DNA of 64,000 nucleotides from Escherichia coli (GCF_030013205.1 NZ_CP122648.1), one strand, 5' to 3'. Shown: positions 31,461-48,838, counted from the first letter of the stretch. The notes: a model not told the origin generated them from the letters alone. Translations and numbers: made by a program.

Positions 31461-31475
31461 CGCACCATACCGCAT

Positions 31476-31619: not shown

Positions 31620-31687
31620 TGAAAATATTCGTTATTTCTGTGCCATGATTACCTCGTCAAATTGAGTAGACGTTATGAGGTAAATAT

Positions 31688-31885: not shown

Positions 31886-31962
31886 TTAAATGGCTACGGG
31901 GCTATTGCCCCCAGCTATCCACCAGCAAATAAAAGTAACTTAATTCGATAGCAGGAGTTTTT

Positions 31963-32763
31963 ATGAAATTTCCAAAAACGCCCGTACAGGGGCGGGGCTT
32001 CGTTCGGCCTGAAAACCAGAATCTGCAAAATTTCGGCGAAATTATCCCGATTATTTCCGGCGTTATTGGCGGGAGTGAAACCACTATTGTTAGCGCCAGA
32101 GCGTTACATAAGGCGTTAGGTGTAGGGCGCGTTTTCCGTTCGTGGATCAAGGGGCGCATTGAAGAATATGGGTTCACGGAAGGCGTGGATTATAAGGTTG
32201 TTGAATATTTGAGCCGACCCGATCCGGTGAGCGCAAAATCTCGCCAGCAAACCGCTCTTGAGTACATCATCACAGTGAACATGGCGAAAGAACTGGCGAT
32301 GGTCGAACGTACCGAACAGGGCCGCGCCGTTCGCCAGTACTTTATCAAATGCGAGGAGGAGCTACACAAGGTTGCGCCTGTTCGTTCCGCAGCGTTACGC
32401 CGGGAACTGAAAGCCCGTATCACAGTTGCCAGCTACTTTAAGCCAATGTGTGCCGCGCTGGAGGCGTACCGGGCTGAACTGGGTAAAAACACACTCCAGC
32501 ACCACTACACCACGGAAGCGAACATGCTGGCGCGTATCGTGCTGGGTGGCATGACTGCAAAACAGTGGGCACTGGCGAACGGCATTACAGGCGAACCACG
32601 CGACCACATGAGCACGTTGCAGCTTGAGCACCTTTCTTACCTTGAGCAGAGCAATATCACGCTGATTGAGTTAGGCCAGGACTACCACCAGCGGAAGGCT
32701 GAATTAATTCGTCTTTCGCAGCGTTGGTTAGCCCGTCGCATGGAGGAAAACAGCCATGTGTAA
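31963..32763 (+). CDS. phage antirepressor-like protein (Bro-N/AntA-type N-terminus)
   Basis: 266-aa ORF; the N-terminal region resembles phage antirepressor proteins. Confidence 0.6.
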   Translation: MKFPKTPVQGRGFVRPENQNLQNFGEIIPIISGVIGGSETTIVSARALHKALGVGRVFRSWIKGRIEEYGFTEGVDYKVVEYLSRPDPVSAKSRQQTALEYIITVNMAKELAMVERTEQGRAVRQYFIKCEEELHKVAPVRSAALRRELKARITVASYFKPMCAALEAYRAELGKNTLQHHYTTEANMLARIVLGGMTAKQWALANGITGEPRDHMSTLQLEHLSYLEQSNITLIELGQDYHQRKAELIRLSQRWLARRMEENSHV

Positions 32764-33237
32764 CGCTCTGACCGTTACAAAAAGAAAAAGCGCCCCGTTG
32801 CCGGAGCGCCTTTGTGAACGAATAGCCTACTGCGCCATATTGCTTACTGTCTACGAGGCAGATTATAGCGTTGTGGTCGCACAGAGTGAAGGCGCTGATC
32901 ACCGTTACTACAGCACACCAGAAATGCAGAATATTTTGCTGCAAAATGTCGTTGGCCACGCTGTCCGGAAAGCAAAAAATTTTGCTGGTGGCGTGACTGA
33001 TACGATTTTTTCTGGTTGCTCGGTGCTGATCAACTTAACCTGGACTTATGTACAACATTGCAACTATTCCTACTTTAAGCTGAATGTAACTTTACCTATA
33101 TCATTAGAGGTATGGTCGCGCTTGACCTCAATTTCACCATTTTGTAGCCCTGCTACAAAAAAATATAAAAGTGTCAATGTTGCTGCAATCAGTAACCATT
33201 TTCCAAAAATATACATTCTTGATTTTACCCTTAATCG

Positions 33238-33411
33238 TCAACCTTTTGGCACGATGCCTCGCTGTTGTAATTCTTTGCGGAGCACTCGTTTAATCCAGGT
33301 AGCTAATGAGGTGTCGCCGTCTGCTTTGGCTGCCTCCTCAAGTTGTGCCCTAAATTCTTCTGGTAGCCGCATTTGGTATGGTGGCGATCGTTTTTCTAAT
33401 GGTGTTGACAT
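33238..33411 (-). CDS. Arc/MetJ-type ribbon-helix-helix DNA-binding protein (57 aa)
   Basis: Manual translation MSTPLEKRSPPYQMRLPEEFRAQLEEAAKADGDTSLATWIKRVLRKELQQRGIVPKG; below the 60-aa ORF-track cutoff; start abuts a palindromic operator. Confidence 0.6.
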   Translation of the reverse strand: MSTPLEKRSPPYQMRLPEEFRAQLEEAAKADGDTSLATWIKRVLRKELQQRGIVPKG

Positions 33412-33451
33412 GGTAATTACCCATAATTACTATAGTTACACGGTAATTACC
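33412..33451. promoter_or_regulatory. putative operator: two perfect GGTAATTACC palindromes 30 bp apart
   Basis: Palindromes at 33412-33421 and 33442-33451 in the divergent region between the Arc-like gene and the 33548 gene. Confidence 0.55.
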
Positions 33452-33547
33452 ATTGTACTTACCATTGCAAAAAAAACAACGCCCCGGACTGCGGGAACAG
33501 TACCAGGGCGTCTAACCACCAACGATAGCGAAAGTATCGAGGTAGCT

Positions 33548-33751
33548 ATGATAAATCATACCACACACCCGCAAGGGCGGGACTCGCACAACCTGAATAA
33601 ATACATCTGGCGTTTTATCGCCCTGAGCACGGCACAACCGCGCGTGATTCACATCGAGGCCACCAGCGAACAGGAAGCCCGCCAGCAATCTCCTGATGGC
33701 TGCGTGATGGTATTCGCTGCCCGTATTCGCCAGGAGGTACGCCATGATTAA
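33548..33751 (+). CDS. hypothetical small protein (67 aa)
   Basis: ATG at 33548 with a GAGG RBS; 8-nt overlap with the next ORF. Confidence 0.55.
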   Translation: MINHTTHPQGRDSHNLNKYIWRFIALSTAQPRVIHIEATSEQEARQQSPDGCVMVFAARIRQEVRHD

Positions 33752-34109
33752 CCTGTCACTTACCGACCTTCACCGCATTCAGTTTGACGAGAAATTTACC
33801 GGGCAGCTACTGGTCCATGTGGAGAACGGGCGCATAGTGCGTAATTACCACCTGCCGGATGGTGCAATTGCCGGAAGCGTTGAAGCATTGCTGGAAATGG
33901 CAGAACGTGCGCGACTGATTAAGCCGTTAACGTGCCATCACGATGATGATCTGCATTTTACCGGACGCATGGTGAGCCATTATGAAAACGGCGTTGAGGT
34001 ATCCCGCGAACGTCTGCGTGATGATTGCTGTTTCGGCACATTGCCGGAATTTATCGAATTGCTGACCGATTGCGGTTATCAGGTAATTCAGAGCAAGACG
34101 CAGGAGTAA
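33744..34109 (+). CDS. hypothetical protein (121 aa)
   Basis: ORF track; operon context upstream of primase. Confidence 0.6.
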   Translation: MINLSLTDLHRIQFDEKFTGQLLVHVENGRIVRNYHLPDGAIAGSVEALLEMAERARLIKPLTCHHDDDLHFTGRMVSHYENGVEVSRERLRDDCCFGTLPEFIELLTDCGYQVIQSKTQE

Positions 34110-34115
34110 AAAACC

Positions 34116-34406
34116 ATGAAAAAGAAAAATTCTGGCTTTACTGCCAGCGGCCCCGCTCGGCCTGAAATCAAACACGGCGATATTTACCGCGACACCAGAC
34201 GTGGGGGACGAGTGGTTATTCGTCACGTTACGCCAGGCAATATCACCTACCGCCGTGAGGCTTACGAATATGACTGCGTAATGCCGCGCCGTCAGTTTGA
34301 GCGTGATTTTATTCTGGTGGAAAACAAACAACAGGCGGTGGCGAGACGTGCAGCCACGAATATTAAAAAAATCCGGGCAATGTTGGTTGCGGGAGGTAAG
34401 AAGTGA
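34116..34406 (+). CDS. hypothetical protein (96 aa)
   Basis: ORF track; 4-nt overlap with the primase start. Confidence 0.6.
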   Translation: MKKKNSGFTASGPARPEIKHGDIYRDTRRGGRVVIRHVTPGNITYRREAYEYDCVMPRRQFERDFILVENKQQAVARRAATNIKKIRAMLVAGGKK

Positions 34407-36208
34407 AAAACGCCCCGAATTTAAAATATCAGCCGAAGGATAAATTCACTGAGGTAATCATTTTTGCCGGGACGGATGCTTACGCCCATGCTCAACACTG
34501 GATTGAAAGCGAAGGACGAAAACACGGCGATAACGTACCACCTGTTTACCTGGGGCCGAAGCAACTGGCAGACCTGGCGAACATCCGCATTATCGACGAA
34601 GGGCGCCGCTTTGCGCGTGTCTATATCGCAGGGGAGATCGAACCAATTCAGATCAACGCTATCGCCGAAAAGCTGGCACTGGCTGGCGTACAGGAGGCGA
34701 AATTATACAAAGGCATCACCGACCGGGAGCCGGAGAACTGGCGCGATTACCTGCAACGGATCCGCGAACAGGCAGAGCGCGGGGAAGTTTCAGCGATGAA
34801 ATTAGTCACAAAAAATAGTGACCTACCCAGGCCAGCACTAAATCAGATGGGAGCCAGCCAGAGAGGGGAAGTATTGCTTGAATATTATGGAAGGGCACTG
34901 GCTATAAATGACGATTCTGATGTAGTTCACCATTACAACGGAATTGTCTGGGAGCCTGTATCTGATAAGGAACTCCAGCGGTCTATGGCGAAGATTTTTA
35001 TTGATGCTGGAATCAGTTATTCGCAAAACGCCATTAAATTTGCCGTAGACACAATGAAATTGAGCCTGCCTGTTATGGGCGGGGCAGACAGGAATCTTAT
35101 TGGATTCAGTAACGGGGTATTTGATACCCGGACAGGAAATTTTCGGGAGCATAACAAAAATGACTGGTTGTTAAATGCCAGTGAATTACCGTTCAGCCCA
35201 CCAGCAGAGGGGGAAACGCTGGCAACACATGCGCCGAATTTCTGGAAGTGGCTGCGTCGTTCGGTGGCAAATAACGATCGTAAAGCGGATCGCGTACTGG
35301 CGGCATTATTCATGGTACTGGCGAACCGGTACGACTGGCAGTTATTCCTTGAGGTAACGGGGCCGGGCGGAAGCGGTAAAAGTGTGATGGCGGAGATTTG
35401 TACCATGCTGGCGGGTAAGGCCAATACAGTATCGGCGAGCATGAAGGCGCTGGAAGACGCGAGGGAACGAGCGTTAGTGGTGGGATATTCTCTGATTATC
35501 ATGCCTGACATGACCCGCTACGCAGGTGATGGTGCTGGGATTAAGGCCATTACAGGCGGTGACAAGGTGGCAATCGACCCGAAACATAAAGCCCCCTACT
35601 CCACACGTATTCCGGCGGTAGTGCTGGCAGTAAACAATAACGCCATGTCATTCAGTGATCGCAGTGGAGGGATCTCGCGTCGTAGGGTGATATTTAATTT
35701 CTCTGAGGTCGTACCGGAGAACGAACGCGATCCCATGCTGGTGGAAAAAATAGAAGGCGAACTGGCGGTAGTGATTCGCCATTTGCTTACACGATTTGCC
35801 GACCAGGACGAAGCGAAAAGACTACTTTATGAGCAGCAAAAATCAGAAGAAGCACTGTTAATAAAGCGTGAAGGTGATTCGCTGGTGGACTTCTGCGGTT
35901 ATCTGATGTCGTTGGTTAAATGTGAGGGGATGATAGTAGGTAATGCAGAAATAGTGCCATTTAGCCCGAGGCGATATCTGTATCATGCTTATTTGGCTTA
36001 TATGTCTGCGCATGGTCTGGGAAAACCGGTATCACTGACACGCTTTGGTACAGATATGCCAGGGGCAATGGCTGAGTACGGAAAGGAGTACAAGCGGGCT
36101 AAATGCACTAAAGGTCCAGATAAAGGGCGAACGATCACAAATGTTCTGTTAGATAAAGATGCTGATGGATGGTTACCAGCAGCGGCAGGCATTAACGACA
36201 GAACATGA
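34403..36208 (+). CDS. phage/satellite-type DNA primase-helicase (P4 alpha / D5-like)
   Basis: 601-aa ORF; Walker A GPGGSGKS; followed directly by an iteron array. Confidence 0.8.
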   Translation: MKNAPNLKYQPKDKFTEVIIFAGTDAYAHAQHWIESEGRKHGDNVPPVYLGPKQLADLANIRIIDEGRRFARVYIAGEIEPIQINAIAEKLALAGVQEAKLYKGITDREPENWRDYLQRIREQAERGEVSAMKLVTKNSDLPRPALNQMGASQRGEVLLEYYGRALAINDDSDVVHHYNGIVWEPVSDKELQRSMAKIFIDAGISYSQNAIKFAVDTMKLSLPVMGGADRNLIGFSNGVFDTRTGNFREHNKNDWLLNASELPFSPPAEGETLATHAPNFWKWLRRSVANNDRKADRVLAALFMVLANRYDWQLFLEVTGPGGSGKSVMAEICTMLAGKANTVSASMKALEDARERALVVGYSLIIMPDMTRYAGDGAGIKAITGGDKVAIDPKHKAPYSTRIPAVVLAVNNNAMSFSDRSGGISRRRVIFNFSEVVPENERDPMLVEKIEGELAVVIRHLLTRFADQDEAKRLLYEQQKSEEALLIKREGDSLVDFCGYLMSLVKCEGMIVGNAEIVPFSPRRYLYHAYLAYMSAHGLGKPVSLTRFGTDMPGAMAEYGKEYKRAKCTKGPDKGRTITNVLLDKDADGWLPAAAGINDRT

Positions 36209-36236
36209 TACGAAATTTATAAGTTGAAACTTAAAA

Positions 36237-36572
36237 GTAGACGGTTGGTAGACAGATACACTTAACCCTCTACCAACCATCTACTAATTAATGTTTTGAA
36301 TTATATAGGTATTTTTAATGTGGTAGAGAGGTGGGCAGTTATTTCTATATTCCTAAACCACGGGGGGTATATAAAAAAACAGATAGTTAAGGGTTCATTT
36401 TTTAAATTTCTCTTTTAACTGTCTACACTGTCTACCATTTAGTAAAAATCATTAATTATCAATGTATTAATGCGGTAGACAGTTAGTAGACAGTTTGCAG
36501 ATTGTTTTTTTGTTATGAGTTAATAACATTAAATAAATCAATCAATTATATCGGTAGACAGTTGGTAGACAG
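36237..36572. repeat. putative replication origin: paired GGTAGACAG iterons flanking an AT-rich segment
   Basis: GTAGACGGTTGGTAGACAG (36237-36255), inverted copy (36268-36284), TGGTAGAGAGGTGGGCAG (36321-36338), inverted pair (36419-36436), GCGGTAGACAGTTAGTAGACAG (36473-36494), TCGGTAGACAGTTGGTAGACAG (36551-36572). Confidence 0.7.
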
Positions 36573-36580
36573 TTGTAACG

Positions 36581-37123
36581 ATGGGGCAAAGCATGACTAA
36601 GCTGACCATTAACAGAAAACCGAAAGGCATTTATGGCACGCCGCAGAAAACGACGCAGGCGGCACAGGAGCAGGATAAAACCACGTCGGCGCATAAAGTG
36701 ATGCCCGGTAACCAGAAAGCGCAGCAGAAGCCCACAGGGGCGACACCGTGGCGGCATATGACCAAGCGCCAGCGCAAAAACCGCAGGCGCATTAACCGCC
36801 TCACTGAGTTGTGGCCTGAATTATTCAGCCGGGAAGCACCGAAGCCGCTTAAGGTGGGGATATTCGACGACCTGATGCAGGATCTCGCCGTCAGGGGGCT
36901 GGCATTCGGTCCAGGGGCATTGCGTGCGACGCTGGCATCTTATGCACAGTGTCCGCGCTATTACCGCGCCTTAATGGCTGGTGGGGTACGCTACGACCTG
37001 AAAGGCCAGCCGTGCGGCGAGGTGACACCACAGGAACAACAGGACGCAGAAACGCGGCTGGTGGCGCTGAATGAGAAGCGCAAACGTCAGCGCCGGGTAG
37101 CAAAGGAGAAAACAGGCGCATGA
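36581..37123 (+). CDS. ProQ/FinO-domain RNA-binding protein
   Basis: PLKVGIFDDL...LRATLASYAQCPRYYRAL...YDLKGQPCGEV parallels ProQ (PLKIGIFQDL...LRSALRLYTSSWRYL...VDLDGNPCGEL). Confidence 0.75.
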   Translation: MGQSMTKLTINRKPKGIYGTPQKTTQAAQEQDKTTSAHKVMPGNQKAQQKPTGATPWRHMTKRQRKNRRRINRLTELWPELFSREAPKPLKVGIFDDLMQDLAVRGLAFGPGALRATLASYAQCPRYYRALMAGGVRYDLKGQPCGEVTPQEQQDAETRLVALNEKRKRQRRVAKEKTGA

Positions 37124-37407
37124 TTCACGACAGCAAAGCGGAAGCACTGGAAGCGCGTGGTCTGTACCGGAGAGCGGCGGCGCGGTGGGCTGAGGTCATC
37201 ATGCTGGCGAATGATGACAAGGCACGGGAACAGGCGGCAAAACGTCGCGCGGAATGTATCCGCAAGGCAGCACGCCCACCAGCACGGCAGGATAATTTCG
37301 GGGAGATGCGCGAAACCATCAGCCGGGCACATGCCGGGATGGGATTACATCAGCCCAATGGTAAGGCATTCAGGAAATACCCTGGATCGAAAAATTGCAG
37401 TCAGTGA
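37120..37407 (+). CDS. PerC-family transcriptional activator-like protein
   Basis: 95-aa ORF; SKAEALEARGLYRRAAARWAEV matches the PerC-family N-terminal signature; ATGA overlap with the upstream gene. Confidence 0.6.
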   Translation: MIHDSKAEALEARGLYRRAAARWAEVIMLANDDKAREQAAKRRAECIRKAARPPARQDNFGEMRETISRAHAGMGLHQPNGKAFRKYPGSKNCSQ

Positions 37408-37608
37408 CGGAGGCCGGGATTTTTCCCGGCTTTTTTGTGCCAGTAAAAAGCCCGCAGCCAGAAGTGTTGCGGGCTTTGTTTTTCAGGTGATTGAAGTCAA
37501 TGGGAAGAACGCGATCATCATGCGTTATTGTTTCATAAATTGCAATGATGTAGATCGTCATTTCAGTTTGTGCAATCATAATCGTTGTTTTGTTCAGGAG
37601 ATATGACT

Positions 37609-37782
37609 ATGAGAAAAGCCAGCGTGAAACCTGTTTTACTCGCTCGTGATCAGATTGAAGCATTACAGCGCATCCAGGACGAGGAACGCCGCAATTCTCC
37701 GCTGGGGATTGCTCCGAGCATTCATGAGGTCGCCCGGCGTTTAATGCAGCGGGCGCTTTATCCCGTAGAACGTCCGGCCTGA
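37609..37782 (+). CDS. hypothetical small protein (57 aa)
   Basis: ATG at 37609, 9 nt after an AGGAG RBS; ORF track 37585..37782. Confidence 0.45.
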   Translation: MRKASVKPVLLARDQIEALQRIQDEERRNSPLGIAPSIHEVARRLMQRALYPVERPA

Positions 37783-37821
37783 TGGTCGTGATTTTTTGGT
37801 GAAAAAAGAGAGGTGGTAAAA

Positions 37822-38400
37822 ATGCCAGCAAGCAAAGAAGATTTGCGATTAAAACTGATGGAGGTGGTTAACGCTCTGTCAGAGTCGCAGGGCAGCACTC
37901 CGCAGGAGATTATCGAAATTCTGAATGCGATCCCCGCACAGGATTTCATAAAAGAGGATAACGCTAATCAAAACATCGTCGCGTCAGTCGAAGATGAATC
38001 CTCACTGGCAGAAGCCCAGGCCAAAGCGGATTCCGCATACAGCAATATGGGCCGTCGAGCTCCGGCCCCGTTTGCTGGTGAAAAGTCGATGGATTACCGC
38101 AAGCGTGCATTAATTGGCGCACAGAAGCTGGCTAAAAAATTCAGTGATGTGGATATTCGTTCCGTTTCAGATTCTGCAACGCTGGCGGTGCTGGAAGATC
38201 AGATTTACAAGGCTGCTCAGGAAAGTGCTCAGTGGGCCGTGGAAAACACGCCGGGTTATTTGACTAAAAAAGTCAGGATGGATGAAGCCGGGCGCCGGAT
38301 TACTGAATATCAGGGGGATCCGAATAACTGGCTTAGTGCTTTCAAAATCCCTCCCCGTCGCCTGGTCAAAATTAACGTTGCAAGCCTCGCGGGGGCATGA
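37822..38400 (+). CDS. hypothetical protein (192 aa)
   Basis: ORF track 37813..38400; ATG at 37822 follows GAGAGGTGG. Confidence 0.65.
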   Translation: MPASKEDLRLKLMEVVNALSESQGSTPQEIIEILNAIPAQDFIKEDNANQNIVASVEDESSLAEAQAKADSAYSNMGRRAPAPFAGEKSMDYRKRALIGAQKLAKKFSDVDIRSVSDSATLAVLEDQIYKAAQESAQWAVENTPGYLTKKVRMDEAGRRITEYQGDPNNWLSAFKIPPRRLVKINVASLAGA

Positions 38401-38464
38401 AAAACGTGCTGATTTCAGCCCTGCCGGATTTGGCGGGGCTTATTGATTATAACCGGGTGACATT

Positions 38465-39148
38465 ATGCTTTTAACAGAAATTGAGGCGGCAAAGCAGATT
38501 CGGGACGGTCAGCTACCGTCGCCTTATCAGTTCTCCAACATGTGGCTGGTTAACCTGCGTATTACAGGGACTGGCATGGCCTACCGCGCCGAAGAAAAAG
38601 AATTTGTCTGGCGTTCACCGCAAACTTATCTCAATCCGCAGTTCCTGGAACGTTGCGCCGGAGTACCCGTCATTATCGACCATCCCGAAGGCAAAACCAT
38701 TGAAGACGTTGGCGAACGGTCGCGCATTATTGGCACCGTCATGTTGCCGTATATTCGCGGTGACGAGGTGTGGGGTGTATGCCGGATTTACGGGCAGGAA
38801 ATCATCGATTACATCCAGAAAGCACGGGGGGAGGTATCCACCAGCCCGTCGGTTGTGTTTTGTGGTGCGTCCGGTGGGGCAGAAGTTCCTGATGTAATGG
38901 GCGAGGACAATTTTTTCATTGAGGGTACGCCATTTCTTATCGATCACGTTGCGCTCGTACCGTTGGGCGTATGGGATAAGGGCGGGAAACCATCAGGTGT
39001 GGAAGTAACAACGCCGACAGAAGAAGAACAGCTCGCCGGAATGGTCCGTGAAGTTATTGATGCGGCCTGCAAGCCAGCTCTGGAAAAACTGGAAGAAATA
39101 TCCGGGCGGCTGGATCAACTGGAAAAAAACAGAGTGAGTGAATCATGA
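38465..39148 (+). CDS. hypothetical protein (227 aa)
   Basis: ORF track; overlaps the next gene by 4 nt. Confidence 0.65.
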   Translation: MLLTEIEAAKQIRDGQLPSPYQFSNMWLVNLRITGTGMAYRAEEKEFVWRSPQTYLNPQFLERCAGVPVIIDHPEGKTIEDVGERSRIIGTVMLPYIRGDEVWGVCRIYGQEIIDYIQKARGEVSTSPSVVFCGASGGAEVPDVMGEDNFFIEGTPFLIDHVALVPLGVWDKGGKPSGVEVTTPTEEEQLAGMVREVIDAACKPALEKLEEISGRLDQLEKNRVSES

Positions 39149-39762
39149 AAATTGCTAAAAACTTAAATCTGATTATCCCTGTGCGCACTGAAAAGGGTAA
39201 TGGCTGGCTCCATGCCACGCCGATCAGCAAAGAGGTGTTTAAAGAGCATTTCTTCATCCTGAGTAAAACCTTTTCTGCCATTTTTTCTGAAGGTCTTGGT
39301 GTTGTTGCGGGTCCGCGCGTTGCCTGCCTTATGCTGGAGAAAATCTCCCGTGACTCCGGTTTATGGGATGGGGAGAAAGGCATACGTAATACGCTCATAA
39401 ACGAAATTATTCGCCTGGCAAACCTTGTTTATCCAGTGGAGGGCAAAGGCTACGACACAATCCCTCTCGATATGGCGCTGGAGCGTGAAATCGTTGATTT
39501 GGACGAAGTGGCGGGTGAACTTGTTTTTTTTACATGCGTCTCGTCGATAAATTCCCCGGAGCAGACGAAGGGGACTATGGATGCGGTGAATGGAATATGG
39601 AGCACTCAATGCTCGTCCTTGAGTCTTACGGAATGGATCGATTCATTGCCGACATTGAAGCCTGCCGTCAGTTCTGGCGCGACGGCGAACACGTCATCAG
39701 CGACATCCTCGACTACTCAGCCGGAGCCGGATTCAGAGACATCTGTGCAGATTCCGGTCTGA
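39145..39762 (+). CDS. hypothetical protein (205 aa), Ser/Thr-rich C-terminus
   Basis: ORF track; translationally coupled to the upstream gene. Confidence 0.65.
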   Translation: MKIAKNLNLIIPVRTEKGNGWLHATPISKEVFKEHFFILSKTFSAIFSEGLGVVAGPRVACLMLEKISRDSGLWDGEKGIRNTLINEIIRLANLVYPVEGKGYDTIPLDMALEREIVDLDEVAGELVFFTCVSSINSPEQTKGTMDAVNGIWSTQCSSLSLTEWIDSLPTLKPAVSSGATANTSSATSSTTQPEPDSETSVQIPV

Positions 39763-39826
39763 ATGTAAAAACAGCAGCTCAGTTTCGTGAGCTGCTCAAA
39801 TTCAAAAATCCCGCAGGAGTATTGTA

Positions 39827-41866
39827 ATGTCAGGTAATCAGATGCCAGTTCTGACGCTGGACGTTAATGAAGAACACCTCAAACGGCTTGAGGCAATTTT
39901 TGAAAAGTATCGCAACGGGCTGATGATCGGCCCTGCCGGAACGCCGATGAAAATACCGGGGCAAAGTGGGCGCAGCGTGGGGGCAGGCTTACCCGTGGCG
40001 GCAAAATCTGGTCGGACAGGACCGGATGTATCCGGGAGAGTGAGGGACGAAAAAGGGCGCTTTGTCGGCAGCGGAAAAACAGCAGATTCGTTCGTAAGCA
40101 ACTATAAAGGTCGCGGCGAAACGATGTTTGATAAGTATCTCAGCGGGCTGGGGAAAAATGCCCAACAGACGCTGAAAACTTACAAGCAGATCAATTCTAC
40201 ACTACAGACGACCACTTCAAGATTAAACAACCTGTTTAAAACAACCGTATCGTGGGGAACAAAACTCTCGGTTATGGGCGTTGCCGGACCGTTTGGCTTT
40301 GGCATGATGTCCCGTAGTGTTGTAGAGAAACAGAAAAATGCAGATGAGCTGGTGGCAACGCCAGGAGAGTTAAAGGCGGCAGAAAGCACTTATTCGCCTT
40401 ATTTTTCCGGTGTTGGCAATGTGCTCAATACACTGGCAGCAGCACAAAATGATATATCGCATCCTGCCCGCGTCGGCCTGCTTAATCTGGGGCTAAATCC
40501 TGATAAAAACGCGACTGAAAACCTGCCTGTATTCCTGAAAAAGGTTGCAGAGCTGGCAAAGGAATATCAGGGAAGTGGTCTTACCCAGAGCATGCTCAGG
40601 GGAAGAGGGCTTGGATGGGTAAATTTTGGTCTTACTAACCAGTTAGTCAAATATCAGGACAAAATACCTGAACTCAACAAAGAGTTTTCGTTACGTGCAG
40701 CGCAGAATGATTCGTTACTGACCTCTGCACATACAAGTAAATATCAGAATATTACCAGTAACCTGGAAAAAAACTGGGATCGGCTTACCAGCGGATTTCA
40801 GGGAGCAATGGCGGGGAATGAAGACGCTTTAATCAGAATGTCTGATGGTGCCACGAATGCTGCCCTGAATTTCATGAATGGTGAGAACTTTAAAAGGATT
40901 CTGACGGATGTAGAAACGGGGCTGGATAAACTTGGTAAGTACGTAAATGGCCCGGATTTTAATAACGACCTGAACAATTTTGCCGAAAACGTTGCAAAGG
41001 TTGTTAAGGCACTTAGCGGGTTTGTTGGTTTTGCGGTTGAACATCCCTGGCTTTTTGGGGCCGCAGTACTTGCTGGACCATCGAGAGTTGGTGCTGTGGC
41101 AGCCACAACGACCGGAGTTGCCGCCCGTGTTGTTGGTGGAAGTCTTCTTGGGGCTACAGCCGGAACAGTAGCTGGATTGGCTATTCCTACAAATGACACA
41201 CCTACCACCAGTGAGGAAATGAAAGGGCTGGAGGGGCGTTTCAACTTTGATTATTTTAACGAAGTGCAGGAGTGGCAAAAAAACAATCCGGGTAAGGTCT
41301 GGCCTGGAGGATTGCAGGGATTTTCAAATCAAGTAAACAGATCTGCATATTTATCCAGAGGGATCAGGAATAACAATCCCGGAAATCTTAATTTCGCAGG
41401 ACAAAAAGGGGCTACCCTGGAATCGGGGCCAAATGCCCGTTTTGCCAGCTTCCCGACGATGCTGGAAGGCATTGCCGCCTTAGATCGGCAGGTAATGCTA
41501 TACCTGAAACGCGGCAAAAATACGATTGATCAGATTATTGATATTTATGCCCCTTCATCTGATGGAAATAACACATCGTCCTATAAAAGCTATCTCTCTC
41601 AGTACACCGGATTAGGTGTTAAGGAGAAAATCGATGGTTCTAATTTTGAGGTCATGAAAAAGCTAATTCAGGGCATTATTAACCATGAAAATGGTGCTGC
41701 CGCTAAAGCTGTAAGTGTTGAAGATGTGATCCGGGCGCTGGCTATGAATCGTGGGATTGTCCCTGCAGCAGGAAACAATGATCAGAACGTTAAGTTGGAA
41801 ATTGTTCGGAACGCTGGTGCCGATTACTTCGCGCAACTAATTGGTGCTCAACGGTTCCTGGGATGA
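39827..41866 (+). CDS. large hypothetical protein (679 aa) with glycine-rich hydrophobic segment, tape-measure-like
   Basis: AGGAG RBS; central segment AVLAGPSRVGAVAATTTGVAARVVGGSLLGATAGTVAGLAI; function not assignable from sequence. Confidence 0.7.
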   Translation: MSGNQMPVLTLDVNEEHLKRLEAIFEKYRNGLMIGPAGTPMKIPGQSGRSVGAGLPVAAKSGRTGPDVSGRVRDEKGRFVGSGKTADSFVSNYKGRGETMFDKYLSGLGKNAQQTLKTYKQINSTLQTTTSRLNNLFKTTVSWGTKLSVMGVAGPFGFGMMSRSVVEKQKNADELVATPGELKAAESTYSPYFSGVGNVLNTLAAAQNDISHPARVGLLNLGLNPDKNATENLPVFLKKVAELAKEYQGSGLTQSMLRGRGLGWVNFGLTNQLVKYQDKIPELNKEFSLRAAQNDSLLTSAHTSKYQNITSNLEKNWDRLTSGFQGAMAGNEDALIRMSDGATNAALNFMNGENFKRILTDVETGLDKLGKYVNGPDFNNDLNNFAENVAKVVKALSGFVGFAVEHPWLFGAAVLAGPSRVGAVAATTTGVAARVVGGSLLGATAGTVAGLAIPTNDTPTTSEEMKGLEGRFNFDYFNEVQEWQKNNPGKVWPGGLQGFSNQVNRSAYLSRGIRNNNPGNLNFAGQKGATLESGPNARFASFPTMLEGIAALDRQVMLYLKRGKNTIDQIIDIYAPSSDGNNTSSYKSYLSQYTGLGVKEKIDGSNFEVMKKLIQGIINHENGAAAKAVSVEDVIRALAMNRGIVPAAGNNDQNVKLEIVRNAGADYFAQLIGAQRFLG

Positions 41867-41917
41867 TTTAAATACACGCGCTTTCCGGCGCATTAATACA
41901 GTCTGAGGGGAAGTGTC

Positions 41918-42445
41918 ATGTTTATGAGCAAGGCAGAATATGCCAAACACAAAGGCGTAAGCCGCCAGACAGTTTACGACTGGATCGAGAAAGGCGAAGT
42001 GATCATGTCTGGCAAAAAAATTGATGTGGAAGCGACAGAGCAGCGGAACAGCCCACCAGCACAGGGAAAAGATACCGTTTCTGAAATGTGGCCAGAGAGA
42101 ACGCTGGAAATGACGTGGGGCGAGTTCTGGAAAGCAGTTAAGGCCAGAGACGGTAAAATCCCTGCACCAGTAACGGACAATGACATACAGCAGCGTGTAC
42201 AGGATGCAGCCGGGGAACTATGCTGTGAAGTGCAATTTCTTGATGATGGTGCTATCTGCCTTGAGGATTATGCTGGGCAATATTACTTTGAGCAGTATGA
42301 TTTTCGGGAAAATGCCAGGCTGGCAATTCGTATGCTGCGTTGTGAGCTCTGCTATGTTGCAGGTGATTGTCCCGATGAGCTGGATAACTGGAGTGAAGCC
42401 GGACTAAACGCCCTGGCTGAGTGGGAAAAATCAGGCCATCAATGA
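41918..42445 (+). CDS. HTH protein resembling terminase small subunit Nu1 N-terminus
   Basis: N-terminal KAEYAKHKGVSRQTVYDWIEKGEV resembles the lambda Nu1 winged-HTH region; GAGGGGA RBS; 175 aa. Confidence 0.55.
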   Translation: MFMSKAEYAKHKGVSRQTVYDWIEKGEVIMSGKKIDVEATEQRNSPPAQGKDTVSEMWPERTLEMTWGEFWKAVKARDGKIPAPVTDNDIQQRVQDAAGELCCEVQFLDDGAICLEDYAGQYYFEQYDFRENARLAIRMLRCELCYVAGDCPDELDNWSEAGLNALAEWEKSGHQ

Positions 42446-42451
42446 CCTCAA

Positions 42452-42732
42452 AAAGTGTCAAGTTGAGCAGCTTGCCAGGTTGACACTTTACACTCTGAAC
42501 GCGAAAAAGTGTCAACCTCGCTGTAAGCCCCGCCATTACTGGCCTTTCGCCAGATTTACCACGTCAAAAAGCCGAAAAAATCGCGAAAAGTGTCAAGTTG
42601 CCATGCTTAGAAATGCTAAGGTTTGATAAGGTTTTTCGCGAAAAAGTGTCAAGTGTGTCAACCTGCGATGTTAAGATTTGTTAAGGTCTTAAGCCGGAAA
42701 GTGTCAACCAGCCCCCTAAGATTTCCTAAGGT
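42452..42732. repeat. array of AAAGTGTCAA direct/inverted repeats interleaved with TAAGATTT-nn-TAAGGT motifs
   Basis: AAAGTGTCAA at 42452, 42506, 42587, 42643, 42698; inverted copy 42480-42489; TAAGATTTnnTAAGGT at 42673 and 42717. Confidence 0.75.
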
Positions 42733-42739
42733 GTAAACC

Positions 42740-42919
42740 ATGACCATCACCGAAGCCGATTTGCTGGAGATGATCCGCAGCATTGCCGGAATCAAACAAC
42801 CAGCAAGCAAAATTAACAGGTGTTCAGCGCCTGTTTCCGTTGTGCTGCAGCAGGAACGCCACCAGCATGATGATGTGAGGCCGTATCAGTGGCGGAAACC
42901 GGACAGGCCGCGACGGTGA
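42740..42919 (+). CDS. hypothetical small ORF (59 aa)
   Basis: ATG after an AAGGTG RBS just downstream of the repeat array; below the ORF-track size cutoff. Confidence 0.3.
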   Translation: MTITEADLLEMIRSIAGIKQPASKINRCSAPVSVVLQQERHQHDDVRPYQWRKPDRPRR

Positions 42920-43385
42920 GCGGAACGTTCGGTAAGGCTACAGCCAAGCCAAACATTAAGCCTACGGGTAACCCTTCGAAGGGGCTTTAAAGGGGAGATG
43001 ATTATCCTTACCAGTTGATAAACAAGCAAACCTCAAATTTGAGGTTTGTATCTGCCTGACTTATTTTTGTGCTAAGTTGTTGATATATCCGACGACACAA
43101 ATTTGCGTTCTGTGGCTGGTGGTGGCGAGTTACGACCGATCATTTCCTTCCTGGCAGGTTACATCCTGCTGCTCAACTACTACGGTAGCCACTACGATTA
43201 ACTACGCGATGCCGATATGGGGATTCCCATATCGGTTTATCCGTGATCATCCACCAGCTTGATCACGGTTAACAGGGGATGTGTAATCCCCAAGCGAGTG
43301 ATAAATGTGTATAGAAATGTGTATAGAATTTATTTTAGAACTCGCGAATGCGCCTTTATTACTGGCCTTGTGGCTTGTTGTATTG

Positions 43386-43403
43386 TTCCCTTCGCCCGCT
43401 CCA
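43386..43403 (+). repeat. att direct repeat (18-bp copy of the glyU 3' end) at the island 1 / island 2 junction
   Basis: TTCCCTTCGCCCGCTCCA is identical to tRNA positions 29148-29165. Confidence 0.85.
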
Positions 43404-43900
43404 GAATCTCCCCAGGTGGAGAAGACTAAAAAAGTCTTCTCTGTCAGCAACTTAAACAGTTACCTATTTAATTTGCTTAGGAGTTCTACCATTGTGATCC
43501 GCCCTTAGTAACTGTCACGTTAAGTTACTCGGTGAGATGACAGTATAACCTAACGTTGGCGGCAGTTGCACCTCTCACACCGCGATAGCACAACGTGAAG
43601 ATAAAGCCCATCCTGGCATTGTAATGTCATCGACAGACTGAACACACGCATTTAAGCCCGATGTGCGGCCTTGTGGCTGCGTAAACAGGTTTATGGTGAT
43701 ATTGGTCCTTGCAAACCATATGCAAGCTCTATCAGCGTTTCAGCCACGCTCCCAACGGGTACACGGTTATCCTGATAAGGTGTGATCTTTCTGACAATCT
43801 GATGAAGTCGCTACGCTCCCGCTTGTTGCTGTATCACCAACGGGGCTTTATGGTTTCTATTGTCTATAATAATCTCACAATTCCCCTGCATGAGGTTGAT

Positions 43901-44107
43901 ATGACTGTTAGCTACAAGATTACTTATGAGCATAGAGACGGTGATCAAATTAGAATGGAAGAGGTTTTATTCCATTCAGAGCATGAACCAACAAAAGATG
44001 AAATTCATGATGCAGTAAGAAAAGATACTGTGAGATTTAATTCTCCATCTAATGGAGTAACGGCTGTTTCAGGGTTTAAAGTGATTTCGGTTGTCCCTGT
44101 TCCATGA
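43901..44107 (+). CDS. hypothetical small protein (68 aa)
   Basis: ATG at 43901 after a GAGG RBS; ORF track lists a longer 43709..44107 frame. Confidence 0.5.
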   Translation: MTVSYKITYEHRDGDQIRMEEVLFHSEHEPTKDEIHDAVRKDTVRFNSPSNGVTAVSGFKVISVVPVP

Positions 44108-44140
44108 ATGGTTATAGAAGGGGCTGGAAGCCCCTAATTA

Positions 44141-44461
44141 TTACTTCTTAATATCGCCAGTGCATTGATATTCGATAGTCACAAGTGTTTGCATACAACC
44201 AGATGAAGAAGGTTGTGAACATTGAGAAGTGAATCCACCAAAAGGCTCGGCTCCTGAATATCCCCAAGCGGCACAACGCGCTTTGGCTGCATTCATGCCT
44301 TGTTGTGGATCTACAACAGGACTTTCAAACATACCGTAAGAATAACTCATCCTAACTGTGCCGTCTGATTTGCTTCCACCAGTTGGAACGAGTTGTTTTT
44401 TTGTTGCACATCCAGAAATAATCAATGTTGAAGCAAGTAACAGCATTAAACTTTTGCGCAT
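44141..44461 (-). CDS. small lipoprotein (106 aa), Cys-rich
   Basis: Signal peptide with lipobox LIISGC; convergent with the upstream gene across a GGGGCT-GGA-AGCCCC hairpin (44117-44131). Confidence 0.7.
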   Translation of the reverse strand: MRKSLMLLLASTLIISGCATKKQLVPTGGSKSDGTVRMSYSYGMFESPVVDPQQGMNAAKARCAAWGYSGAEPFGGFTSQCSQPSSSGCMQTLVTIEYQCTGDIKK

Positions 44462-45113
44462 GTAAATAATCCCAAGAGATAATGGTTATGTATTGATTTA
44501 AAGCGTTTTTAGATTAATGCATTAACTTAGCAAAATTAAGTCTTTTCTGATTGTTTGCAGAGTAAAAATGAGTTGCTTTCGAAATTATTTCGGATGTTTA
44601 TTGTATTACGGTTTTTCAAACCGTCTAACTATTGTCGCTATTGAATGGGCAATAATAGCAAGAGGATTCATTTCGTCATTGGAGGCAACAAAAAGTCGGT
44701 AACTGATAGCTACAACGAATGAAACAATAACGAGAAAGCGGATAGTGCTAAGATGTTTTGAAGATAAATGCATAACGCCCCCTAAATGAATGTGAGGGGG
44801 ATTAAATCATGCAAATTTGTTGTGTGCAATACTGGTAATTTATCCTAATAGTCTACTATTCACCTCAATCTACGTCAACCAATATTTGATGTAGATTTGA
44901 TTTTCTTTTAAAAACAATATGTTGCAATTTGTTGGGTTTTGGGGTTAGGTTGTTTTTTGGACGTTTCCATCAAGTGTAAAGATACGTTTAGCCTTCATAG
45001 TGAGTTCAGTTACTGTCTTTTTCTCTGAAATCGGCGCATACGTGATCATCGCTTAACGAGAAGATCAGCGCCGTCAGGTCCATGCAGCGACAATTCTGAA
45101 ATATCAGGAGGCA

Positions 45114-45665
45114 TTACGCTTCCTGCTCTTTCTTGATACGTTGCACCGTCTGTGTGCTGACACTGAAATCTTTTGCTACGCTCCGAATTGATCCACCATT
45201 CGCGAGAGCGGCAACAATTCCCGCTCGATCAATTGCTTTTCCATTACCACGTTTTGCTATACGCCCAGCTGCCTTAGCTGCGGCGATCCCTTCACGTTGA
45301 CGCTCAAGCATCATTTCACGTTCCATTTGTGCCACTGCTGCAAGCACTGTGAGCATCATATTCCCTGCGGGAGAGTTCTTCCCTGTCTTAAAGTCTTCTT
45401 TATGGAAATGCACAGACACGCCGCGCTCTGTTAATTGCTCAACCGTTGCCAGAAGGTCGGCTGTATTACGGCAAAGGCGATCAATACTGTGAACATGCAA
45501 AACATCACCTTCCCGCACATAGTTCATCATTGCCTCAAACTGTGGGCGCTGGGTATTCTTGCCTGACGCTTTATCTTCAAAGACTTTATCAAGAGCTACT
45601 CCAGCTAATTGACGGTCTGTGTTTTGTTGCACAGTCGATACCCTAATGTATCCAATATTAGCCAT
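45114..45665 (-). CDS. serine recombinase (resolvase/invertase family)
   Basis: 183-aa ORF; N-terminal IGYIRVSTVQQ with catalytic Ser; C-terminal HTH (SIRSVAKDFSVSTQTVQRI). Confidence 0.85.
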   Translation of the reverse strand: MANIGYIRVSTVQQNTDRQLAGVALDKVFEDKASGKNTQRPQFEAMMNYVREGDVLHVHSIDRLCRNTADLLATVEQLTERGVSVHFHKEDFKTGKNSPAGNMMLTVLAAVAQMEREMMLERQREGIAAAKAAGRIAKRGNGKAIDRAGIVAALANGGSIRSVAKDFSVSTQTVQRIKKEQEA

Positions 45666-46166
45666 TTTCTTTATTCCTTCTGTGTTGATTTGTGTGTAGT
45701 GATTATTGATCGTGTTGATTAGGTGTGTAAAGGACTTTTTTCACTACGAAATTCGAAGGTTTTTAGTGTGGTGATTTAGCCTGCTTTATCACTACACGTC
45801 TTGCATGAGAATCATGTAGTTACGTTTTGGTAAAATTAGCAAGCTATTAAATAGTGTGTTTATTTTGAAAAAATAATTTTTTGTTGCATTAAAGAAAACT
45901 TGTTCGACAAATAATAGATTGATTTTTAATCAATAATTTCTGATAGTGCTCTGTAAGCCGCATTACACAAGGCTTTGCGAAAGTGATGTAAAAGTGAAGA
46001 AAGTAAGAATTGCACTTTTAAGCTACTTTTCATTGAATTTTTAGTATGGAATTACACAGGGATTAATCATCAATTACATTGAATTTAAGCCTGTTTTAGA
46101 TGTTTAATTTTGGTAGCAAGAAACACTTTTAGAAGATCATTGCACAGATGTTATGTGATAAATGGA

Positions 46167-46325
46167 TGTAACGATGGGTTACATTCAGCTATCTGAAATA
46201 CTCTCTGTAAGAAATTTGGTAGTAACGATTCGTTACATAGACTAATTATTGAATGTAACGATATTACACATCGGTAGTAACGATACGTTACATCGGCAGA
46301 TGATTGGTTGTAACGAAAGGTTACA
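46167..46325. repeat. five palindromic sites TGTAAC-n5-GTTACA (and GTAACGA-n-TCGTTAC variants)
   Basis: Sites at 46167-46183, 46223-46237, 46254-46268, 46276-46290, 46309-46325 inside a 1.7-kb non-coding AT-rich region. Confidence 0.75.
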
Positions 46326-47357
46326 CAATAAGACTAACATCTATAATACTAATAATAAAACTAACTATTAAACTATATAATATAATTCTTTTTTATCTTT
46401 ATAAGAATAATTATAGGGATACCCGTTAGGGAGTCTAACGACTATCCCTTAATCTATTGGCATTCGCCAGAACCTTGCACAAGTTAGAGTGTTAGTCGTT
46501 AGACTGCTTGTCATAACACATAGTTTTTGTTTGTTGATGTTAGTTAGTAGATCTATGTTCGCTTTCCGCTCACAACGAATATGTAATCTACTATGTGCAA
46601 ATAGCCTACGGCTTGCGTAAGGCTAAATAGTCTTGCGCTGTGCGCAGAACGATAATTAACTAACTACCATCTAACGATCATCAATCATCTAAAATAAATT
46701 TCTTGTGCAATGTTCTTGCGAATGCAATTAGGGTAGCGTTACCCCTTTGGGGATGCTAACGCATAACTATAGATCAACCATCAAACAGACAAAAAAGAAA
46801 AATATGGTTTAAAGATGTTAGGTAGTAGATGAGTTTCTACCGCTTAAATCAAGCCGTAGGCGAGCTAAACGTATATAAGGTAGGGAAACACTTAGCGGTA
46901 ATAGATTAGCTCGTTATAGAGATTCTGAGGAGCTTTACAGGTATTTTATAAGGTGTCTGAAATTAGATTTTATCTACCATCACCTTTTCATATACCTAAC
47001 AAATACAAAATAAGCACCTTAAATAAGCCTCTGGCGAGCTAAACGGTCATTACATAAGGGAATGTATTGTTTTTATCAAAACCTCGTTAGAACGCGTTTT
47101 AGAGCGTTATTAGACAATAATGAAGAATAGCACTACACAGGAGAGCACGAATTGCTAAGACAAATTATAAATTGCTGAAATAGATCGGATTTTTTGCAAA
47201 ATGGTATTGACAAATGTCTCTTTCTGTGCAATAATAGGTATTAGAGGGACAGAAAACATTCTTATCCTCTAAGTAATTAAACCAATGCACCGCACTTTGA
47301 GCCGTCAGGCTGCAAGGTGTCTTTTTCTTTTAACCAAATAGAATAGGAGGTTAATTA

Positions 47358-47540
47358 ATGAAATATTTCACTCCACAGGATGTAGTAGAAGCCTGGAAAC
47401 GTGGTGAGATCAATCGTTTTAAAGTAAGGATGAACAGGAACACAGCGCGACGCTGTGGTTATCCAGAGCGTGAAAAATGTTTTGACGATGCACTAAAAAT
47501 TATTGATGAACTGCGTAAGGCAGAAGTAGAGAAAGAATAA
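47358..47540 (+). CDS. hypothetical small protein (60 aa)
   Basis: Strong AGGAGG RBS; ORF track. Confidence 0.65.
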   Translation: MKYFTPQDVVEAWKRGEINRFKVRMNRNTARRCGYPEREKCFDDALKIIDELRKAEVEKE

Positions 47541-47561
47541 TAACAGGAGAAGGAGAAAACT

Positions 47562-47729
47562 ATGAGCGAAACTAAGAAACCAATTCCGCGCACTTACCTA
47601 CACGTTGACCCTGAAATCTTCAAGGTTTTATTTGCTGAAGCCAAGAAAAGGCAAATTATGGTCAGTGATTTGATGTTAGAAATCATTACTGAAGCAGCAG
47701 AGAACATCAAACAAAAAAAGGGTAAGTGA
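47562..47729 (+). CDS. ribbon-helix-helix-like small protein (55 aa)
   Basis: Manual translation MSETKKPIPRTYLHVDPEIFKVLFAEAKKRQIMVSDLMLEIITEAAENIKQKKGK; GGAGAAGGAG RBS; below the ORF-track cutoff. Confidence 0.55.
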   Translation: MSETKKPIPRTYLHVDPEIFKVLFAEAKKRQIMVSDLMLEIITEAAENIKQKKGK

Positions 47730-47782
47730 TCCTCATTCACTTTAGTAGCGCATTAAGCGTGATTTATAAGGAGATAATTCTA

Positions 47783-48463
47783 ATGTCTAAAATTAAATTG
47801 ATTCGTGAAAAATACCAGTATGTTGATAAACAAACAGGAGAAATTAAAGACAGAACTTTGAATATACCACACTACTTTTGTGAGATTGAATTCATCTACT
47901 CCTCAAATATTGAGGATGGAAAAGCGAAGTTTAGTGCAGAAATGCAAAAATTATATTGCTATGTTTCAGATTGGGAGAAATCAGGGGGGATATGTTTTGA
48001 AACACAAACGAAGTTAAGTAAAGTTTGTGGCTGTAGCCGTAAGACAGTTAATGAATTGATTGGTCTTATGATTAAAATCGGTCTTTTAGAAGAGGTCGGA
48101 GAACGAATCCCAAAACGTCCTTTAAAATTACGTGCGCTACTTCTCACAGATGCACATATTACTCCCCCTGGAGAATCATCACTACCTGATCCTTCTGAGA
48201 AAGAAGACGAATCTAATGAAATATTGAATGTTTCCGAAATCATCCTTGAAGAAGAAACACAAGAGCCAGAGTTCCCTGAGCGGCCCGAAATTTTTACTTG
48301 GCTTCTTTCCCTTGATAAGAAGAAACCACCGCACGAAGAAACAGAAGATTTTGTAAAACGTGCATTAGATTCAAAGAATATCTATCTTGAGAAACAGGCT
48401 TTTCACGATCTGATAATATCTCTAAGAGAAAAAAGTGAAATATACGATTCAATACCATTCTAA
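47783..48463 (+). CDS. winged-HTH protein (226 aa), possible replication initiator or regulator
   Basis: AAGGAG RBS; HTH-like TQTKLSKVCGCSRKTVNELIGLMIKIGLLEE; acidic C-terminal half. Confidence 0.65.
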   Translation: MSKIKLIREKYQYVDKQTGEIKDRTLNIPHYFCEIEFIYSSNIEDGKAKFSAEMQKLYCYVSDWEKSGGICFETQTKLSKVCGCSRKTVNELIGLMIKIGLLEEVGERIPKRPLKLRALLLTDAHITPPGESSLPDPSEKEDESNEILNVSEIILEEETQEPEFPERPEIFTWLLSLDKKKPPHEETEDFVKRALDSKNIYLEKQAFHDLIISLREKSEIYDSIPF

Positions 48464-48472
48464 GGAGAATAA

Positions 48473-48742: not shown

Positions 48743-48838
48743 CAACAGATCGGGCAATACATATGGCAAATGCATTTATGGCGATATTCATTGTAACAAT
48801 GGTATCAAGTTTTTATAATCCACATAAAAAGAGGGAAA

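Follow-up and report, generated by a model that had tools for sequence, protein, structure and literature searches.

Genes for a chaperone and a tape measure protein are present in all phage-inducible chromosomal island-like elements (PLEs) of Vibrio cholerae, some of which have a hub gene (Mathur et al., bioRxiv 2025 / Nature 2026; PMC11838301, PMC12987554). The PLE tape measure protein enters PLE virions and its counterpart from phage ICP1 is excluded, giving chimeric tails; deletion of the PLE gene lowers transduction by 96–99.9% (PMC11838301, PMC12987554). Experimental proof that a satellite manipulates tail assembly exists only for PLE and ICP1 in V. cholerae (Nature 2026; PMC11838301, PMC12987554). 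The same work predicts tape measure genes in those phage-inducible chromosomal islands that form capsids (cf-PICIs) (PMC11838301, PMC12987554). Here we describe island 1, a 14,266-bp element in a 64,000-nucleotide stretch of Escherichia coli DNA (the window), and four of its genes, g1 to g4, at positions 37822–41866. We propose, with a probability of about 0.6, that g1–g4 are a virion-assembly hijack operon of a PICI-like satellite, the probable helper of which is a temperate myovirus of the Rac-SA53/pPE4 type (Rac-like, for short). On this view the satellite probably makes some components of the virus particle that it steals.

The resemblance to PLEs would extend to both ends of the virion. 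Like a PLE, island 1 is a tail-less satellite with a chaperone and a tape measure protein; some PLE variants have a hub, and sisters of island 1 have a hub in the same slot. PLEs also manipulate capsid assembly, as island 1 would. The differences are several. PLE proteins are 19–41% identical to those of ICP1, whereas the island proteins are 82–94% identical to the helper alleles, with which their genes recombine. The island tail cassette is optional and swappable, being present in 13–14 of 33 islands. The PLE tape measure protein is 95 residues shorter than that of ICP1, and the island protein is essentially unchanged in length. ICP1 is lytic, whereas the probable helper of the island is temperate. 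Finally, selective incorporation of the tape measure protein has been seen for PLE and is a prediction for island 1.

Island 1 also resembles the Gram-negative PICIs, exemplified by EcCICFT073 (Fillol-Salom et al. 2018 PMC6092414, 2019 PMC6739421), in its length of about 14 kb, left-end integrase and AlpA regulator. The order of a primase followed by an iteron origin, the 3′ location of morphogenesis or packaging genes and the specific att sites are shared as well. In contrast, the absence of phage structural genes is part of the definition of a classical PICI, and EcCICFT073 has no genes for capsid morphogenesis, whereas this island family has both protease/scaffold pieces and a tape measure or hub gene. 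The island helper is probably a Rac-like myovirus rather than lambda or phi80, and g5, the gene next to g4, encodes a protein unlike any solved structure (which would include Rpp, if deposited). The cf-PICIs and the Mycolicibacterium EPIP (bioRxiv 10.64898/2025.12.02.691453) share with island 1 a tape measure gene, reported or predicted, but they encode capsid, portal and connector proteins, of which island 1 has none. The P4-like satellites differ in carrying Sid, Psu and Delta/Ogr, none of which was found by Pfam or PHROGs scans of island 1 open reading frames (ORFs). In the literature we found no description of this E. coli/Salmonella island family or of a split satellite protease/scaffold, and nothing specific on DUF2213 function or on tape measure or protease genes in satellites of E. 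coli.

The g1–g4 genes

The four ORFs lie on the plus strand and match the RefSeq annotation of E. coli ETEC4079, a pig isolate (NZ_CP122643.1) to which the window is identical in sequence. They are g1 (37822–38400, 192 residues, RefSeq "NUDIX hydrolase"), g2 (38465–39148, 227 residues, "DUF2213"), g3 (39145–39762, 205 residues, hypothetical) and g4 (39827–41866, 679 residues, hypothetical). A preliminary description of the window had listed four co-directional ORFs of just these sizes and places. Spacers of 64 nt separate g1 from g2 and g3 from g4, and g2 overlaps g3 by 4 nt. The unit is larger, consisting of a 57-residue ORF, g1, g2, g3, g4, g5 and a 59-residue ORF. The 57-residue ORF (37609–37782, plus strand) has no family match and occupies the same first position in E. 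coli, Klebsiella and Pantoea islands.

The g1–g4 ORFs are real genes rather than chance ORFs: they are intact in island copies, with low ratios of nonsynonymous to synonymous substitution (dN/dS), mostly 0.05–0.3. All four have strong PHROGs matches and are homologous to virion-assembly genes of Rac-like temperate myoviruses, so that the preliminary statement that none carries an assignable motif does not hold. NCBIfam gave no match for g1–g4. RefSeq names differ among near-identical alleles: g1 is either "NUDIX hydrolase" or "hypothetical", and g4 is either "lytic transglycosylase domain-containing" or "hypothetical". For g1–g4, the names "NUDIX hydrolase", "lytic transglycosylase domain-containing protein" and "hypothetical" are misleading.

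Tail genes: g4 and g3

Homology identifies g4 as a tape measure protein of the contractile-tail phage type, complete in length. Over its full length it is 87% identical to the tape measure protein of the resident Rac-like prophage of strain UMNF18, and 94% identical to a phage allele of equal length, P0210. In Rac-SA53, pPE4, the prophage of UMNF18 and phage contigs from metagenomes, the orthologues occupy the slot that follows the sheath, tube and chaperone genes and precedes the baseplate hub genes. The resemblance to tape measure proteins that had been suspected from the composition of the 679-residue protein is thus borne out, and the Gly/Ala-rich hydrophobic stretch on which it was founded is real, at about residues 395–460 (~41009–41206). 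Farther on lies a peptidoglycan-hydrolase-type C-terminal domain (~41327–41746), which matches phrog_2276, a tape measure family (3e-31), PDB entry 9vvp_L (9e-14) and the endolysin 7q47 (1.6e-11).

The extreme C-terminus of g4 (~41765–41863) is island-specific. The five alleles in phage context, which come from six phage or prophage loci, share the ending ...AQLAG(T/M)QQIPG, even where pairs of them are 44–52% identical overall. The seven island-context alleles have four other endings: GAQRFLG, GAQQFHR, FSGLMPR and AGVWVPR. When g4 is compared with the 94%-identical phage allele, 15 of the 38 differences fall within the last 33 residues. The island bodies are of two types, which have different phage alleles as their nearest relatives: one of 679 residues has an RNNNPGN-type domain, and one of 687 residues has an SLT-type domain. 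In its central part g4 is a mosaic involving different phage alleles. An N-proximal variable segment (residues 41–78) was considered as a second island-specific feature and was dropped, as it also occurs in the phage-context alleles P0258 and P0210.

The upstream gene, g3, is 82% identical over its full length to rac52 of Rac-SA53, encoded directly upstream of the phage tape measure gene. A run of eight T residues at 39524–39531 contains a T_TTT_TTT slippery heptamer (39525–39531) in the g3 frame. The run, which lies inside g3, gives entry to a −1 ORF (39531–39827, plus strand). The −1 frame opens just 5′ of the slippery run, after a TGA at 39516–39518, and closes at a TAA (39825–39827) that overlaps the g4 start codon as TAATG. 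The predicted shifted product has about 227 residues, and the 0-frame product 205. Three islands and three phages show no variation in the run or in the dual-coding region, and both are also present in a Salmonella island (L022) and another phage locus (L020). These features identify g3, by sequence, as a tail assembly chaperone of the gpG/GT type that retains a predicted programmed −1 frameshift. A PDB sequence search with g3 gave no match. In E. coli RM9088 (L014, 10645–11261) the run has seven T residues and RefSeq calls the gene "frameshifted"; with the shorter run the 0 frame continues directly into the frameshift ORF. Either a sequencing error in the homopolymer or a natural variant yielding the fused product alone could account for this.

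Head genes: g1 and g2

The remaining two genes are, on comparison of sequences and structures, a helper-type head-maturation gene cut in two with the order of its parts reversed. Residues 1–221 of g2 are 54% identical to the N-terminal residues 1–226 of rac43, the DUF2213 protein of Rac-SA53. Residues 61–189 of g1 are 64% identical to the C-terminal residues 295–423 of rac43, and g1 matches positions 409–544 of phrog_6216. In rac43-type phage proteins the order within the chain is N-terminal prohead protease, coiled-coil linker and C-terminal domain. The linker, about 70 residues rich in Ala, Glu and Lys, is lost from the island genes. The g2 protein is a stand-alone DUF2213 domain with a long C-terminal helix. 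The C-terminal segment, putatively capsid-targeting, which in the phage shares a chain with the protease, is borne by g1, encoded separately and upstream. Ahead of this domain g1 has a helical, island-specific N-terminus of about 55 residues; g1 proteins form a conserved family of 190–199 residues.

An AlphaFold model of g2, built with 28 homologues (pLDDT 81.7), identifies it as a predicted prohead-protease domain of the T4 gp21/assemblin fold. The candidate catalytic residues H73, S125/S127 and H161 are invariant or nearly so in the 28 homologues, and their spacing is assemblin-like. With the phage DUF2213 protein as query, a sequence search of the PDB yielded nothing useful, and a profile search started from an alignment was swamped by the NUDIX domain of fused homologues. 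In ETEC4079 an extra A in the 3′ A-run of g2 (39121–39127) extends the protein to 227 residues, with a stop codon overlapping the g3 start codon; other islands with intact g2 have 223 residues, followed by a 7-nt gap.

The designation of g1 as a NUDIX hydrolase finds no support: Pfam and NCBIfam show no NUDIX domain in it, and g1 aligns with the C-terminal domain instead. Many distant DUF2213 homologues do carry a NUDIX domain, located N-terminal to DUF2213, and these fused relatives account for the RefSeq name.

Two analogies bear on the possible role of these proteins. The Rac-like helper head protein would have a protease–scaffold fusion architecture like that of P2 gpO. By analogy with Staphylococcus aureus pathogenicity island (SaPI) protein CpmB, which shares the capsid-binding end of the 80alpha scaffold, g1 would share that end of the helper scaffold. 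The island differs from the capsid-size redirection systems SaPI CpmA/CpmB and P2 gpO/P4 Sid in that its version is a copy of a helper gene, split and permuted.

Island 1 as a satellite

Island 1 extends from 29138 to 43403, as defined by exact 18-nt repeats at both ends: attL (29138–29155, plus strand) is the 3′ end of a tRNA-Gly(ccc) gene (29082–29155), and attR (plus strand) is at 43386–43403. A degenerate third copy is found at 58125–58149. From the left end, all on the plus strand, the island has a P4-type tyrosine integrase gene (29281–30534; Arm-DNA-bind_3, Phage_int_M and Phage_integrase domains) and an AlpA-family regulator gene (31688–31885; PF05930, 2.4e-19). Between the integrase gene and the next gene is an int-alpA RNA motif, Rfam RF02996 (30579–30646, plus strand; 45.5 bits against a gathering score of 35.8). 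Upstream of the AlpA gene, at 31533–31598, is a 33-nt tandem duplication in perfect register, its copies 94% identical. The island also encodes AntA and DUF4222 proteins.

The replication module has a D5_N/Pox_D5 primase-helicase gene (34403–36208, plus strand), followed by GTAGACAGTT iterons (36237–36574, plus strand; repeat families D2, D3 and D5) that lie between the primase and a ProQ/FinO-family gene and are probably the replication origin. The ProQ/FinO-family gene (36581–37123) and a PerC-family regulator gene (37120–37407), both on the plus strand, are just upstream of the g1–g5 unit. A strong terminator-like hairpin on the same strand (37447–37477; 12-bp stem and T run) parts these regulators from the assembly operon.

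This is the layout of a Gram-negative PICI: integrase, att sites, AlpA, and a primase with an adjacent origin, within about 10–15 kb. Within 29138–43403 there are no capsid, portal, connector, large terminase or lysis genes, and no sheath, tube or fibre genes are encoded. The preliminary assignment to a satellite-type island is sound: there are an integrase, AlpA, a D5-type primase and att repeats, and capsid, terminase and lysis genes are lacking. Island 1 departs from the PICI definition in its phage structural genes, namely the tape measure, chaperone and head protease/scaffold pieces.

The probable helper

A tblastn search of phage genomes led to Escherichia phage Rac-SA53 and to vB_Apl-pPE4, the latter deposited as an Actinobacillus phage. 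In the heads of these phages the gene order is small terminase, large terminase, portal, MuF-like, DUF2213 protein, a 205-residue protein and major capsid protein. The tail order is sheath, tube, a 205-residue protein, "lytic transglycosylase", proteins of 222 and 88 residues, hub and baseplate. The portal of the Rac-like prophage is named "anti-CBASS protein Acb1 family protein" in RefSeq, and Rac-SA53 is an enterotoxin-carrying phage.

Few genomes have the full Rac-like structural module, about 75–80 of 5,426 complete E. coli genomes. A Rac-like phage is found in at least 21 of the 33 island genomes against 59 of the 5,393 others (odds ratio 158, Fisher p = 6e-32), a statistic that ignores strain relatedness, many of the strains being pig enterotoxigenic E. 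coli (ETEC) of one study. Strains UMNF18 and ETEC1716, for instance, have an island together with a Rac-like prophage. The island length is 0.27–0.30 of that of the phage genome. This value falls in the range of known satellite/helper size ratios. In strains cq9, STEC005 and ETEC1732 (L006, L012 and L013) the island lies between abgR and smrA, about 5–10 kb from ttcA, the Rac-like prophage site; in these strains satellite and putative helper are thus near chromosomal neighbours.

Distribution, the cassette slot and selection

The g1–g2 junction, which is limited to the island arrangement, is present in 33 of the 5,426 genomes at 94.5–100% identity. The islands that were fetched are integrated at tRNA-Gly, at tRNA-Pro or between abgR and smrA. 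Their integrases differ and their replicons are of three types, with D5 primase, RepA helicase or DUF927; their 3′ modules are the same. In the family as a whole three or more att sites are used. A Salmonella enterica island has the full g1–g5 set. The g1/g2 pair, again split, recurs at 55–62% identity in Klebsiella aerogenes and Pantoea agglomerans islands, where small-terminase genes follow it. The islands are common in pig ETEC and in Shiga toxin-producing E. coli (STEC). A g1–g2 query has three matching places in ETEC4079 (NZ_CP122643.1), and other pig ETEC strains have as many as four to seven; it follows that several related islands may coexist in one genome.

The interval between g2 and g5 is a slot with four states among the 33 genomes. 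It holds the g3–g4 cassette in 13–14 genomes and is empty in 13. In three it holds a remnant, where a microhomology deletion fuses g2 to the last ~130 nt of g4. Three others, e.g., OkiPb01676, have an 88-residue gene and a 345-residue baseplate hub gene, 78% and 73% identical to phage genes (phrog_196, 8e-37). All cassettes start at one position of the island, at an ATG preceded by GTGAGTGAATC, and finish immediately ahead of the start codon (ATG) of g5.

Pairwise dN/dS values (Nei–Gojobori, up to eight islands) are 0.06–0.49 for g1, 0.05–0.27 for g2, 0.11–0.34 for g3, 0.14–0.19 for g4 within type and 0.04–0.34 for g5. One near-identical g3 pair (dS 0.007) gives 0.62. None of the island copies analysed (n = 8 for g1, g2 and g5; n = 5 for g4; n = 4 for g3) has an internal stop. 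To summarize, the island family is conserved, mobile and selectively maintained, and is not a degraded prophage.

A proposed mechanism and its alternatives

The gene identities come from comparison of sequences and structures, and from them we infer the following mechanism. On helper induction, the island would express the assembly operon. Through the shared C-terminal domain, g1 would dock on the helper capsid protein, and together with the untethered protease g2 it would replace the long protease–scaffold of the helper. Capsid assembly would thereby be biased toward capsids that fit the 14.3-kb genome, about 0.27–0.30 of the helper's. At the other end of the virion, g3 and its frameshift product would load the island tape measure protein onto helper baseplates to give chimeric tails, as in the PLE/ICP1 case. 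The island-specific tail of g4 would serve selective incorporation, or escape from a factor targeting the helper tape measure protein.

A broader proposal, which we put forward tentatively and at somewhat less than even odds, is that an enterobacterial satellite family of PICI-like type, with members in E. coli, Salmonella, Citrobacter, Enterobacter, Klebsiella and Pantoea, uses pieces of helper genes to re-engineer both ends of the virion. The split, permuted g1/g2 pair would redirect capsid assembly. The plug-in slot would take interchangeable tail-core cassettes, either chaperone and tape measure or hub, updated by recombination with resident helpers. The retained satellite-specific tape measure tail would mark or privilege satellite tails, or evade exclusion directed at the tape measure protein.

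Several points weigh against the hijack proposal. The changed g4 C-terminus may have been selected, or it may be the scar of a right-hand recombination junction, and so in part a by-product of recombination. Island and helper tape measure proteins are nearly equal in length, and hence no change in tail length is expected. A scaffold or capsid-binding role of g1 has analogy as its sole basis, and the helical model of g1 has no significant fold match. The tail cassette is dispensable for persistence, since the slot is empty in 13 of the 33 genomes and g3–g4 are deleted in three. In addition to the strain relatedness behind the co-occurrence statistic, ETEC4079 itself appears to be without a helper: nothing occupies ttcA, the Rac attachment site, and the 75 genomes listed with the full module do not include this strain.

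Some of the same facts would suit a passive origin, in which phage genes were acquired by chance as recombination debris, useless to the island, or the region is a mosaic, degrading prophage fragment. Identity to phage alleles is 82–94% in protein and up to 100% over 200-nt windows; the centre of g4 is mosaic; the cassette is missing in 13 islands and deleted in three; the run in RM9088 is T7 rather than T8, and the gene there carries a frameshifted annotation; and a Pantoea island-like region directly adjoins a phage head module. We nonetheless consider a passive origin unlikely. Between islands, g3 and g4 show dN/dS of 0.11–0.19 at dS of 0.14–0.28 (two close g3 pairs are higher, 0.34 and 0.62), five E. 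coli island copies and one Salmonella copy have no stops, and the frameshift site and dual-coding region are kept. The cassette is cut exactly at gene boundaries and set in operon register, two different tail-core cassettes occupy one slot, and g1 and g2 are in all 33 islands, the split pair being conserved across genera. The preliminary description had held that confident homology to standard phage morphogenesis proteins of a degraded prophage would speak against its interpretation. Such homology is indeed present, but its context is a conserved, mobile island that co-occurs with an intact phage. It is also improbable, in our estimate, that the module is an interference device, the tape measure protein with its altered tail and the untethered protease/scaffold pieces acting as dominant-negative subunits that poison assembly of the helper or of related phages and protect the host population. 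Satellites are known to carry the tail-assembly inhibitors Tai (PMC11364771) and Rta (PMC11838301), the phage motif ...AQLAGxQQIPG is changed in every island allele examined, and the protease is separated from its C-terminal domain. Yet the satellite needs working tails, as it has no tail genes besides g3–g4, and the chaperone is carried along with its frameshift, which points to productive assembly. The PADLOC models yield no match for g1–g4, the slot can be empty without loss of the island, and PLE provides a precedent for a satellite tape measure protein as a functional virion component.

Packaging redirection and stand-alone anti-phage defence, both raised in the preliminary description, find no support as functions of g1–g4. 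The 3′ end of satellites often houses accessory and defence genes (PMC11364771). However, g1–g4 are all explained as homologues of head and tail assembly genes, and the search of the PADLOC defence models was negative for each of them. Packaging specificity would come more plausibly from g5 and the AAGTGTCAA array described below, or from the small-terminase genes in related islands. This reading is thus largely refuted by homology and very improbable. The preliminary interpretation is partly supported: helper manipulation, now in the form of the hijack operon, is still the best reading of the module.

If the hijack operon is what we propose, it would bring satellite tail manipulation to a tractable E. 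coli/Salmonella system with a temperate helper. The natural slot variants (empty, chaperone and tape measure, hub, deletion derivative) are ready-made controls. The tape measure tail, a short and defined difference, could explain the choice of the satellite protein over that of the helper. The split protease/scaffold suggests a further way to remodel capsids, different from those of Sid, CpmB, TcaP and Ccm. This island family may escape satellite finders in which elements with structural genes are excluded.

g5 and the 3′ repeat array

The gene following g4, g5 (41918–42445, plus strand), encodes 175 residues with an N-terminal helix-turn-helix (HTH) motif (HTH_17). Its residues 1–42 match phrog_57, a small terminase family (1.3e-6), and its location is the site of the small-terminase genes in the Klebsiella and Pantoea relatives. 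It shows no similarity to the helper small terminase or to the small-terminase genes of the Klebsiella islands. We regard g5 as a candidate packaging or regulatory factor. Immediately 3′ of g5 is an array of six AAGTGTCAA motifs (42453–42707), five direct and one inverted. The spacing of the array is identical in eight of eight E. coli islands, and the motif is absent from the phage loci; an extra copy is present at 33169. The array is a candidate for a pac-like site or an operator at which the HTH protein g5 would act.

The Pantoea agglomerans locus L016 (1–20666) has an integrase, D5 primase, SSB, PerC, g1-like and g2-like genes and two small-terminase-like genes. After a gap of 545 nt come Rac-like phage portal, MuF-like, DUF2213 (438 residues), 208-residue and capsid genes, with no phage terminase gene between. 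This arrangement could be a tandem integration beside the helper or a satellite–phage hybrid.

A second element in tandem

A second element, unrelated to island 1, is at 43404–58149 and lies in tandem with it at the same tRNA-Gly att site and ends in the degenerate att copy. It has genes for a tyrosine integrase (56822–58042, minus strand) and a serine recombinase (45114–45665, minus strand). It also has major-capsid-like (51408–52436), tape-measure-like (52823–54646) and baseplate/tail-fibre-like (56051–56728) genes, a replication-initiator-like gene and an IS3 insertion. Kinship with the Rac-like phages was considered and rejected: the capsid and baseplate proteins are unrelated. The element could be a further one of satellite type or the degraded remains of a phage element, in which a tape-measure-like gene has likewise been kept. 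Its GC content is low, 34–38% over several kb.

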